Source of the DNA: an uncultured Bacilli bacterium
Lineage (GTDB): Bacteria; Bacillota_I; Bacilli_A; RF39; UBA660
Length of the DNA stretch: 64,000 nucleotides
Direction of reading: 5' to 3'
NCBI GenBank assembly: GCA_944372425.1
Contig: CALVZC010000002.1
Location: 7,139-71,138, forward strand
The notes under the pieces were generated by a model that saw only the letters and a program-made list of their open reading frames with translations, did not search any database and was not told where the DNA came from. The stretch's first letter is position 1, and every line of letters begins with the position of its first letter. This document shows, in pieces, positions 2,929-18,714 of this stretch. The position numbers and the translations under genes were made by a program.

Positions 2929-3498
2929 ATGAAATCTAGCAAGGCTTTTACTTTGATTGAACTTTTGGCTGTTGTTGTAATTCTAGGTGTTATTATGACA
3001 ATAGCAATTCCGAATATTGTGTCAACTATAGATAAGAACAAAAAAGAAACTTTTCTTGAAGATGCAAAGCAAATGATTAGTTCGGCTGAATATAAAATAA
3101 GAAGTGATACTTCTATTAATTATCCAGATCAATATAGCGTAGTTATATTAAAATTAGAGAATCTAGAAAGTGCAAATTTAGAAATGTCTCCATATGATAC
3201 TTATTATTCAAAAGAAAAATCTTTTGTTGCAATAACTAAAGAACAAATAACTGGAACTACAGACTATGAATACGTTTTTTATGCACATTTGGTTTCTTGT
3301 ACTGATGAAAAGTGTGAAAACTTAGAAATCGATTCGGCAGCTTATAATAGAGGAATTAATTTAAGTAGATTAACTGATTTAAACACTTCTGATAGATTTG
3401 ATTTAGTATTAAAAGGTGCCGATGTAGAAAGAGATTTGATTGAAAATGTTGACAATATTAAAACAATGCTTGACAGAGACATTGTAAATATATATTAA
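2929..3498 (+). CDS. Type IV prepilin-like protein (ComGC/pseudopilin-like), paralog 1
   Basis: MKSSKAFTLIELLAVVVILGVIMTIAIP is a class III signal peptide / N-methylation motif (xFTLIE). An RBS AAGGTAGGTG lies 8 nt upstream of ATG 2929. The track start 2833 is in-frame upstream read-through. Confidence 0.8.
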   Translation: MKSSKAFTLIELLAVVVILGVIMTIAIPNIVSTIDKNKKETFLEDAKQMISSAEYKIRSDTSINYPDQYSVVILKLENLESANLEMSPYDTYYSKEKSFVAITKEQITGTTDYEYVFYAHLVSCTDEKCENLEIDSAAYNRGINLSRLTDLNTSDRFDLVLKGADVERDLIENVDNIKTMLDRDIVNIY

Positions 3499-17341: not shown

Positions 17342-17695
17342 ATGAGTAGCATAAAAATTGAAAGATTAAACCATGCTTTTGTAGAAGAAATTAGTTATAT
17401 ATTACATAATGAAGTTAAAGATAAGGATATTAAATTTGTCACTATAACTGGATGTGATATAAGTAGTGATTTAAGCTATGCAAAGGTTTACTTTACAGTA
17501 TTAGATGATTCAAGAAAAAAAGAAACATTAGAAGCACTTAATAATGCTAAAGGCTTTATAAGAACTAATTTAAGTCAAAGAGTAGATATAAGACATACCC
17601 CAGAATTAAAATTTATTTATGATACTTCGATAGAATATGGCAATAAAATAGAAGATATAATAGATTCGATTCATGAAAAAGAAAATAATCAATAG
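17342..17695 (+). CDS. rbfA: Ribosome-binding factor A
   Basis: 117 aa with a KH-like RbfA signature (RVDIRHTPELKF). Operon position after infB. Confidence 0.9.
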   Translation: MSSIKIERLNHAFVEEISYILHNEVKDKDIKFVTITGCDISSDLSYAKVYFTVLDDSRKKETLEALNNAKGFIRTNLSQRVDIRHTPELKFIYDTSIEYGNKIEDIIDSIHEKENNQ

Positions 17696-17751
17696 ATTTA
17701 CATTATTATTATGTAAAATTATGGGAAACTATTTATTATTCTTTATATTTG

Positions 17752-17760
17752 TGATATACT
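17752..17760 (+). promoter_or_regulatory. Extended -10 element TGaTATACT
   Basis: Read directly. It lies immediately upstream of the GC-rich structured region. Confidence 0.4.
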
Positions 17761-17834
17761 ATAAATGTCTAAGAGATTAGAAGTGTTTTTTAAAACCGAC
17801 TAAGTAACGATACGGGAGTTCGGAGCGAGTCAAT

Positions 17835-17871
17835 CTGTGTTGAATGCCTATTTTTAATAGGAATCCTAAGG
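17835..17871 (+). repeat. 37-nt direct repeat, copy 1
   Basis: Identical to 17902-17938. It contains the internal hairpin cctatt-ttt-aatagg. Confidence 0.9.
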
Positions 17872-17901
17872 TGGTCGCGGTGACCTTTTCACCACGGCTA
17901 C

Positions 17902-17938
17902 CTGTGTTGAATGCCTATTTTTAATAGGAATCCTAAGG
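17902..17938 (+). repeat. 37-nt direct repeat, copy 2
   Basis: Identical to 17835-17871. Confidence 0.9.
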
Positions 17939-18024
17939 GTTGAGTATGGACACCCACCTGCGAGAATGCGGGTTTTTCGTACACCTATCTTTTGGACATT
18001 TTTTTATGCAAAAAAGGAGATTAT

Positions 18025-18714
18025 ATGTTTGAACGTTTAGAATTATTAATAGGTAAAGAATCTTTAGAAGAAATAAAAAATAGTAAAATTTTAATAGTAG
18101 GAATAGGTGGAGTAGGTGGAAGTGTTGCTACATCTCTTGTTAGAAGCGGTGTTCAAAATATTGTGCTAATTGATTTTGACATAGTGGATATTACAAATAT
18201 TAATAGGCAGGTAGTAGCATATCATTCTACAATTGGCTTAAAAAAAGTAGATGTAATAAAAAAGATTCTTTTAGATATTAATCCTTCTTTAATAGTCAAA
18301 ACTTATGATATTTTTTTAAACAAAGATAATATAAAAACTATATTAGACGAAGAAAAACCAACATATATTATTGATGCTTGTGATTCTAAAGAAACTAAAA
18401 AGAGTATTATTTTAGAAGCAATATCGAGAAAAATAAAATTTATTTCTTCGATGGGAACAGGTAATAAAATGAATCCATCTGACTTAGAAATTATTGATAT
18501 TAGAAAAACTGTTAATGATCCTTTAGCAAGAATTTTTAGAAAATGGGTAAAGGATAATAAAATTAAAAGTAAAATAACTGTATTATCTTCACGTGAATTA
18601 CCAATAAAAACAGGTAATATTGTTTCATCGAACAGTTTTGTACCCACAAGTGCAGGTCTACTTATCACTAGTTATGTTATTAAAGATATTATAAATGATG
18701 ATAGTAAAGATTAA
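18025..18714 (+). CDS. tcdA: ThiF/MoeB-family tRNA threonylcarbamoyladenosine dehydratase (TcdA-like)
   Basis: ILIVGIGGVGGSVATSLVRSGV Rossmann motif of the E1-like ThiF family. About 230 aa, the TcdA size class. RBS AAGGAG. Confidence 0.75.
   Translation: MFERLELLIGKESLEEIKNSKILIVGIGGVGGSVATSLVRSGVQNIVLIDFDIVDITNINRQVVAYHSTIGLKKVDVIKKILLDINPSLIVKTYDIFLNKDNIKTILDEEKPTYIIDACDSKETKKSIILEAISRKIKFISSMGTGNKMNPSDLEIIDIRKTVNDPLARIFRKWVKDNKIKSKITVLSSRELPIKTGNIVSSNSFVPTSAGLLITSYVIKDIINDDSKD

Follow-up and report, generated by a model that had tools for sequence, protein, structure and literature searches.

The GC-rich island that separates rbfA from tcdA in the window (the whole 64,000-nt stretch of DNA from an uncultured Bacilli bacterium that was analysed here) is very likely a 6S RNA gene whose apical arm carries an insertion, R-H-R, in which two copies of a 6S hairpin segment (R) flank a foreign hairpin (H) from a toxin-linked small RNA gene, and whose product probably still works as 6S RNA. 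Considered separately, the assignment of the feature at 17763–18002 (+ strand) to a 6S RNA gene (ssrS) is almost certain from its sequence. The core 6S identity is ordinary; it is the chimeric allele that is unusual.

The rbfA–tcdA spacer and its assignment to 6S RNA

The window is gene-dense, is transcribed nearly entirely from the + strand, and belongs to a low-GC gut bacterium. Upstream of the island lies rbfA (17342–17695, + strand), a 117-aa ORF for the 30S ribosome-binding factor A with a Pfam RBFA match on an identical product. Downstream is a tcdA-like gene of the ThiF family (18025–18714, + strand), which encodes 229 aa from the ATG at 18025, has a Pfam ThiF match on an identical product, and is preceded by the RBS AGGAG at 18015–18019. 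A TTG at 17992, the start given in the ORF list, falls inside the 6S gene and was rejected as spurious, the real start being the ATG at 18025. Between these genes, GC content is 0.37–0.47 over 17750–17999, compared with 0.17–0.26 in both flanks. A repeat search found the 37-nt sequence CTGTGTTGAATGCCTATTTTTAATAGGAATCCTAAGG twice (17835–17871 and 17902–17938), with 100% identity and a spacing of 67 nt; chance alone would not be expected to produce an exact repeat of this length in 64 kb. TRF did not report the 67-nt period because only 1.55 copies are present. The 30 nt that separate the copies (17872–17901) form a predicted hairpin of 13–14 bp with a pairing probability of ~1.0, and a 246-nt stretch of the + strand has a folding energy of −80 kcal/mol, with z = −5.5 relative to dinucleotide shuffles. 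These results confirm the features that a first-pass annotation had described at 17765–17990, namely the GC-rich island, the 37-nt repeat, and the hairpin between its copies; that annotation had overlooked a 15-nt inverted repeat, I2 (17763–17777 with 17987–18001, 87% complementary), which encloses the entire island.

Two sets of sequences were compared with the window. With the exact RbfA protein as query, ten metagenome contigs of this organism (L001–L010) were retrieved, which over ~6 kb are 99.6–99.8% identical to the window (L001–L009) or 97.2% identical (L010). An RbfA scan of a genome collection returned 80 loci from uncultured low-GC gut MAGs (Bacilli, Tenericutes, Mycoplasmatota, and Mycoplasma sp. 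CAG:877), and the three closest relatives among them have nucleotide identities to the window of ~93–97% (L011), 89–93% (L012, a circular long-read MAG, OZ006981.1), and 80% (L013).

The 6S assignment came from sequences that lack the insertion. The segment L005 3422–3594, identical to the window bar a 67-nt block, matches Rfam RF00013 with 61.9 bits (E = 4.8e-12; model positions 1–187 of 187; gathering score 46.4), and the 173-nt genes of L011, L012, and L013 score 62.2, 62.7, and 61.6 bits against the same model. Coordinates were transferred from L005 (offset 14341, plus 67), which places at 17763–18002 on the + strand a 240-nt long allele that would measure 173 nt if the insertion were removed; for this allele, the assignment is drawn from its identity to the short alleles outside the insertion. 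The long allele itself gave no match to RF00013 at the gathering threshold because the 67-nt insertion sits inside the apical helix. In a permissive Rfam scan of 17650–18100, the second repeat copy gave a 14.3-bit partial match to the apical region of the 6S model; the other matches were at chance level. At the gathering threshold, Rfam detected no family in all 64 kb, and ARAGORN found no tRNA or tmRNA in the window; in this low-GC lineage, ribosomal-protein leaders and comparable elements are missing or have diverged too far.

Mapped onto the window sequence, the Rfam consensus pairs outline a closing stem and an apical arm on either side of a large central bubble. The closing stem corresponds to the inverted repeat I2 (5′ strand 17763–17777, 3′ strand 17987–18001, both on the + strand) and is paired in the Rfam consensus. 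The 5′ side of the bubble, GACUAAGUAACGAUAC (17798–17813, + strand), is unpaired in the mapped consensus, and the 3′ side (17956–17970, + strand, placed by the Rfam alignment) contains a small internal hairpin, CUGCGAGAAUGCGG, and the conserved motif CACCCACCUG. This 3′ side was flagged as terminator-like by a simple scan, and the element cccacctgcgagaatgcgggttttt had been read as a terminator in the first-pass annotation; it is actually the conserved 3′ side of the 6S central bubble. The same annotation had excluded 6S by eye, a judgement that is overturned by the match of the insertion-free allele to RF00013 (61.9 bits, E = 4.8e-12). One of its two proposals, an independent small RNA, agrees with this full-length match of the short allele.

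The extended −10 element that it had read, TGaTATACT at 17752–17760 (+ strand), is present and is a predicted promoter; the sequence at the −35 position (17732–17737, TTTATT) is weak. The promoter box is kept as TGTGATATACT in L011 and L012 and as TGTGGTATACT in L013. The 173-nt gene and a TGnTATACT box are retained in all three related species, at flanking identities of 80–97%, as for an independent gene. Just upstream of the 6S promoter and overlapping it, the window contains a 30-nt imperfect direct repeat (17703–17762, 73% identity), within which ATGTAAAATTATGGGAAACTATTTATTATT is kept in L011–L013 and may be a regulatory or UP-like element.

The model used to place the start of the product RNA (pRNA) was B. 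subtilis 6S-1. By this analogy, the predicted pRNA template is AAAACCGAC (17792–17800), from which synthesis would start near C17800 and yield a pRNA beginning 5′-GUCGGUUUUAAAA or 5′-GUCGGUUUU, with GG at positions 4/5, a feature noted in PMC8414754. By homology, the gene would be transcribed from the extended −10 promoter and its RNA would fold into the closing stem, large central bubble, and apical arm; it would then bind the sigma-A RNA polymerase holoenzyme as a mimic of an open promoter, and the polymerase would be released from 6S when it copies a short product RNA off the 5′ strand of the bubble. The gene thus shares with B. subtilis 6S-1 and RF00013 the closing stem, the bubble, the apical arm, the CACCCACCUG motif of the 3′ bubble, a promoter of its own, and a predicted pRNA template. 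The window allele differs from RF00013 in the 67-nt R-H-R insertion in the apical arm and in scoring below the family threshold.

The T-run at 17999–18005 probably marks where 6S ends, or else acts as a leaky terminator. The start codon of tcdA lies 22 nt past this T-run, with only the RBS between them, and tcdA is probably co-transcribed with 6S because this gap leaves no room for a tcdA promoter; 6S would thus occupy the leader position of tcdA. The linkage of the two genes is retained in L011, L012, and L013. In E. coli, 6S RNA is co-transcribed with the downstream gene in the ssrS-ygfA arrangement. The present locus resembles that arrangement in having a protein gene 22 nt past the 6S 3′ end, without space for a promoter and with a linkage kept in relatives; it differs in that the downstream gene is a tcdA-like member of the ThiF family and not 5-formyltetrahydrofolate cyclo-ligase, and in that co-transcription is here a prediction. 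In the ~80%-identity relative (L013 2849–4986), 6S directly precedes tcdA but rbfA is ~2.1 kb off, something having been inserted between rbfA and 6S, and a sister lineage (L105/L106 981–1469) has an additional 162-aa ORF in the infB–rbfA interval, without a Pfam match, that the window lacks.

Allelic variation and origin of the inserted block

Across the ten contigs of the same organism, every position of the rbfA–tcdA spacer is identical to the window save for one block, which is 67 nt long in the window and in L001–L004, 66 nt long in L006, L008, L009, and L010, and absent (0 nt) from L005 and L007. Long alleles are found in 9/11 same-species sequences, including the 97%-identity strain L010, and also in L107. 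Outside the block, the gene and its promoter are 100% conserved in all nine long alleles, L010 included. Only the short 173-nt form, with one copy of the 37-mer, is found in L011, L012, and L013. Read from these alleles, the short form is ancestral, because three related species carry it exclusively, and the 66/67-nt block is a derived insertion that is polymorphic within the species. The caution in the first-pass annotation that the repeat might be a local duplication was well placed: the repeat is recent, polymorphic, and absent from related species.

Within the cluster of sequences that are 99.7% identical, the flanking SNP haplotypes do not predict which of the three alleles a sequence carries, and the nearest sequences to the window (67 nt) are L009 (66 nt) and L007 (0 nt). 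Such a distribution is consistent with an insertion that is older than the ~3% divergence, that has spread by recombination, and that has been lost by precise deletion between the 37-nt repeats. Alternatively, the short calls in L005 and L007 could result from collapse of the 37-nt repeat by the assembler. In L107 (1845–2195), RbfA and the upstream spacer are those of the sister lineage, yet the 6S SNPs are of the window type and the allele is the 66-nt one; this mosaic suggests recombination between the lineages. In L108 (1250–1690), a scaffold N-gap and a duplicated flank are located exactly at the apical repeat and indicate assembly trouble there. Of the two long forms, we think that the 66-nt form is the primary product.

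In the window, the block and its surroundings consist of R1 (17835–17871, + strand), the first copy of the 37-nt segment of the 6S apical hairpin, as defined by the repeat search and the allele comparison; H, TGGTCGCGGTGACCTTTTCACCACGGCTAC (17872–17901, + strand), a foreign 30-nt hairpin that reads in the same sense as the toxin-linked small RNA but lacks the U-tract of that gene; and R2 (17902–17938, + strand), the copy that aligns to the 6S consensus. The short allele lacks H. Compared allele with allele, the insertion is therefore a second copy of the 6S apical hairpin plus the foreign hairpin H, and not a simple tandem duplication. H occurs once in the 64-kb window, even when three mismatches are allowed. 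Several origins were considered for it and rejected: as a diverged copy of another part of 6S, it has a local alignment score below the shuffle mean; as a dispersed repeat, it is single in the window and in no other fetched locus; and an insertion derived from a MITE or IS is at odds with its single occurrence in 64 kb at ≤3 mismatches and with a duplication 37 nt long.

The four contexts outside 6S in which H was found by a metagenome scan all represent one type of toxin-linked gene, and it is highly likely, from these matches, that H is foreign and toxin-linked in origin. The closest donor is a phage MuF-toxin locus (L092), which is identical over 33/33 nt to the 66-nt allele and over 31/31 nt to the window; identity to H in L091, L093, L094, and L100 extends over 29/29 nt. 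The donor small RNA gene and its toxin were not found in the 64-kb window by a pattern search for H or by tblastn of the toxin, MuF, and portal proteins, which gave nothing significant. An exact pattern search for H in IMG/VR viral contigs gave 0 matches, and the DNA of the H gene had no match among GenBank phages. In nucleotide comparisons, the toxin loci match the window in H and, for L097, in a cdsA/rseP-like region (its CTP_transf_1 and Peptidase_M50 genes) that is ~65–71% identical to window positions 21267–22704; none of the toxin loci so compared comes demonstrably from the window's species.

The junctions between donor and 6S share a G on the left (1 nt) and CTG on the right (3 nt; CTGT.TT.A in L094). 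What was captured is the hairpin alone, in the sense orientation of the small RNA, and the U-tract was left behind. From these 1-nt and 3-nt microhomologies, the insertion most likely arose by template switching: replication would have switched from 6S to the donor at the shared G and then, at the shared CTG, from the donor to the start of R, which would have been copied again to give R-H-R. Insertions of the FoSTeS/MMBIR type arise by microhomology-mediated template switching. The present one resembles them in that a short foreign segment lies between two copies of the target and in that the junctions share 1 and 3 nt; it differs in that the mechanism is here deduced from junction sequences only. 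A limited search of the literature found no natural 6S RNA with a captured foreign hairpin.

The probable donor: a small RNA gene beside CdiA_C-type toxin genes

When the metagenomes were scanned with the core of H and an IUPAC ‘not-A’ position that excludes the 6S context, four contigs were retrieved. In each of them (4/4), H stands alone as part of a unit composed of TTGACA, 17 nt, TACAAT or TATAAT, ~10 nt, the hairpin, and a T-run. This stand-alone hairpin abuts the 3′ end of a toxin gene and is always convergent to it. The toxin products match Pfam CdiA_C (PF18451) with E-values of 1.6e-10 and 3.5e-08, and in L092 the CdiA_C domain forms the C-terminal end of a phage minor capsid protein 2 (MuF) whose gene lies beside a portal-like gene. 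The family PF18451 is the PD-(D/E)XK tRNase family of CdiA-CTII Bp1026b (PMC9990079), and MuF fusions are polymorphic toxins of temperate phages (PMC5576092). A PDB sequence search with the toxin returned no match.

Homologues of the 197-aa toxin (45–98% identity) were traced to further contigs. Eight distinct toxin loci have an invariant TTGAC, a 17-nt spacer, TAnnAT, and the hairpin, in which 93.8% of cells pair across the eight loci and three pairs show compensatory changes, a result equalled by 7/500 shuffles. Fold z-scores of the donor hairpins range from −4 to −9. The hairpin is more conserved than the toxin, its core TGGTCG..TGAC..TTTCA being kept at 45% protein identity; the toxin homologue in L097 lacks the hairpin. 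The predicted small RNA genes, of ~45–50 nt, lie on the minus strand in L091 (1461–1577), L098 (4507–4623), L100 (4574–4690), L101 (3001–3117), L102 (1037–1153), L103 (2996–3112), and L095 (3022–3138), and on the plus strand in L092 (387–503) and L094 (4060–4176). In L102 (530–1096) and L103 (2501–3055), the toxin ORF lacks a stop codon ahead of the hairpin and continues across it to a C-terminus ending in SAAVVKSHRD, which puts the small RNA antisense to coding sequence at these two loci.

No conserved protein-coding neighbour was found at the toxin loci, where the small RNA is the sole conserved neighbour, and a protein immunity gene is not evident because no protein-coding neighbour is conserved. 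Rfam identified only tRNA-Pro on the four contigs with stand-alone H and has no family for the hairpin RNA, which is also absent from the literature searched. The tRNA-Pro(UGG) follows directly after the toxin/small RNA pair, on the strand of the toxin, in two contigs that are both of phage type (L092 325–401, minus strand, and L095 about 3131–3207, plus strand). This placement could reflect a link to the tRNA target of the toxin, or an attachment site.

A diverged version of this layout was found in Streptococcus phage Javan513 (MK448789.1; host S. pyogenes MGAS5005), in which the C-terminal domain of a MuF-like protein is 32% identical to the CdiA_C protein P0121. There (L115 2590–2690, about 20.55–20.65 kb in Javan513), the opposite strand carries a TTGATA-17-TATAAT promoter ahead of a U-run and a long hairpin that folds at −41 kcal/mol (z −5.7), the hairpin coming first. 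The two small ORFs that also follow may encode immunity proteins. Both L092 and Javan513 conform to the MuF toxins of PMC5576092 and to PF18451: in each, the portal gene is followed directly by a gene for a MuF/minor-capsid protein that ends in a CdiA_C-like domain. The small downstream ORFs are proposed as the immunity genes of such toxins in PMC5576092, which makes no mention of a convergent promoter-hairpin.

A convergent small RNA that has a promoter and a terminator and overlaps the 3′ end of the toxin, an arrangement like that of antisense type I systems, is accordingly present at eight distinct loci and in Javan513. On the simplest reading of these sequences, the hairpin small RNA would be an antisense or decoy partner of the toxin, which makes it a candidate RNA antitoxin. 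Type I toxin–antitoxin (TA) pairs with convergent antisense RNAs that overlap at the 3′ ends include bsrG/SR4 and txpA/RatA of B. subtilis. The type I pair RalR/RalA is cited in PMC5576092. The candidate shares with these systems a short RNA with full complementarity to the 3′ end of the toxin mRNA, a constitutive-looking promoter, a shared bidirectional terminator hairpin, and a frequent location on prophages. It differs from them in that the toxin is not a small membrane peptide but a 176–197-aa protein with a CdiA_C nuclease fold or the C-terminus of a MuF capsid protein, in that the donor RNA is only about 45–50 nt long, and in that its antitoxin role is putative. With type III TA systems (ToxIN, CptIN, TenpIN), it has in common a toxin of a ribonuclease family and, possibly, an RNA partner in place of a protein immunity factor. 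Membership of type III was rejected: there is no upstream array of tandem repeats and no co-directional transcription, and the hairpin is single, downstream, and convergent.

Effect of the insertion and alternative readings

When the outer 6S pairs are enforced, the long allele folds at −76.4 kcal/mol, compared with −45.3 for the short one, into an extended rod with H at its tip. In this rod, CCUAUU and AAUAGG of R1 are paired with their complements in R2 and H forms the cap, so that the two R copies would pair with each other and lengthen the arm by ~30 bp. For 17828–17945 alone, the rod (−41.0 kcal/mol) is favored over a three-hairpin junction (−34.1 kcal/mol), with pair probabilities of 0.94–1.0; those of H are ~1.0 in either architecture. 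The junction, which is ~7 kcal/mol less stable in these models, might disturb the ‘−35-like’ part of the arm. As read from the sequence, the extra C of the 67-nt variant adds pairs at the base of the H stem. The central bubble, the predicted pRNA template, and the closing stem are unaltered by the insertion, and in this model the long-allele RNA probably still works as 6S. In B. subtilis, a 6S-1 RNA cut down to the bubble and short arms completes the 6S cycle in vitro, with an affinity for RNA polymerase that is ~10-fold lower (PMC8876501). By analogy, an extension of the distal arm is plausibly tolerated, because the truncated RNA still cycles in vitro.

It might instead be argued that the long allele is a damaged or null 6S, slightly deleterious and purged by deletion between the 37-nt repeats. 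The Rfam match is indeed lost in this allele, the arm that carries the insertion is the mimic of upstream promoter DNA, and short alleles sit on several flanking haplotypes, which is consistent with recurrent precise excision. We nevertheless regard damage as improbable: the bubble and closing stem are intact, the distal arm of B. subtilis 6S-1 is dispensable in vitro (PMC8876501), the long form is the majority in the sample, and the rest of the gene and its promoter are 100% conserved in nine long alleles, even in L010, whose flanks are 97% identical. Far less credible still is a tandem-aptamer riboswitch or a regulatory leader of the ThiF-family gene, as the first-pass annotation had proposed. 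The island does immediately precede the co-oriented tcdA gene, whose start codon is 22 nt away, with a linkage that is kept in L011–L013. However, no riboswitch family matches even at E ≤ 10, the short allele matches the 6S model over its full length, the ‘two aptamers’ result from a recent duplication not seen in relatives, which have one copy of the 37-mer, and the segment between the copies is foreign DNA; a 6S gene in the leader position of tcdA does not imply the sensing of a ligand. That the allele is an assembly artefact, from a chimeric or mis-joined contig, can be given almost no credence. Repeats of 37 nt can confuse de Bruijn assemblers, as the N-gap of L108 at this site illustrates, but identical 66- or 67-nt junctions are present both in the window and in nine assemblies made independently in several studies, and any k-mer common to 6S and the donor locus is too short to produce a chimera.

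A further possibility accepts the 6S identity and makes the insertion functional: 6S would be an abundant and stable carrier that displays H, and H would serve as an orphan antitoxin RNA or confer immunity to CdiA_C-type tRNase toxins that are delivered or encoded by MuF phages or carried by neighbouring cells. H could act as an antisense to the 3′ end of the toxin mRNA or as a decoy that binds protein. In 6S, H has the orientation of the promoter-driven small RNA, and the hairpin was captured without the terminator U-tract; the 66-nt allele and the phage MuF-toxin locus L092 agree at 33/33 nt; beside the toxin genes, the small RNA alone is conserved and a conserved protein immunity gene is lacking; and the hairpin is better conserved than toxins that diverge down to 45% identity. 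Moreover, long alleles are common and occur in strains that are 3% apart, and the extra C of the 67-nt variant adds pairs to the H stem. We nonetheless hold a role as carrier to be rather unlikely. The antitoxin activity of the donor small RNA is itself only putative, neither such a toxin nor a MuF phage was found in the 64-kb window, and short alleles coexist at 99.7% identity without haplotype structure, which is the expectation for a neutral and unstable insertion; the sample is too small for selection on 30 nt to be detected. If the carrier hypothesis were true, this bacterium would have grafted a phage toxin-associated hairpin onto the tip of its 6S RNA and used 6S as a scaffold, and the convergent promoter-hairpin beside the toxins would be a previously unrecognised RNA antitoxin.

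Under the preferred reading, a probably functional 6S RNA with a captured hairpin, a single 67-nt insertion makes a genuine 6S gene undetectable by Rfam/Infernal defaults, and genomes of this kind would be scored as lacking 6S. The locus also represents a clean and datable capture of a short fragment of a foreign RNA gene inside a structured RNA gene, with duplication of the flanking sequence. A by-product of the comparison is a conserved hairpin RNA gene that is paired with CdiA_C-type toxins in gut Bacilli and their phages and, in diverged form, in S. pyogenes prophages. For the organism itself, the polymorphism amounts to a natural experiment, in which otherwise identical strains carry a 6S RNA of 173 or 240 nt and extension of the apical, ‘upstream DNA-like’ arm is tested in vivo.
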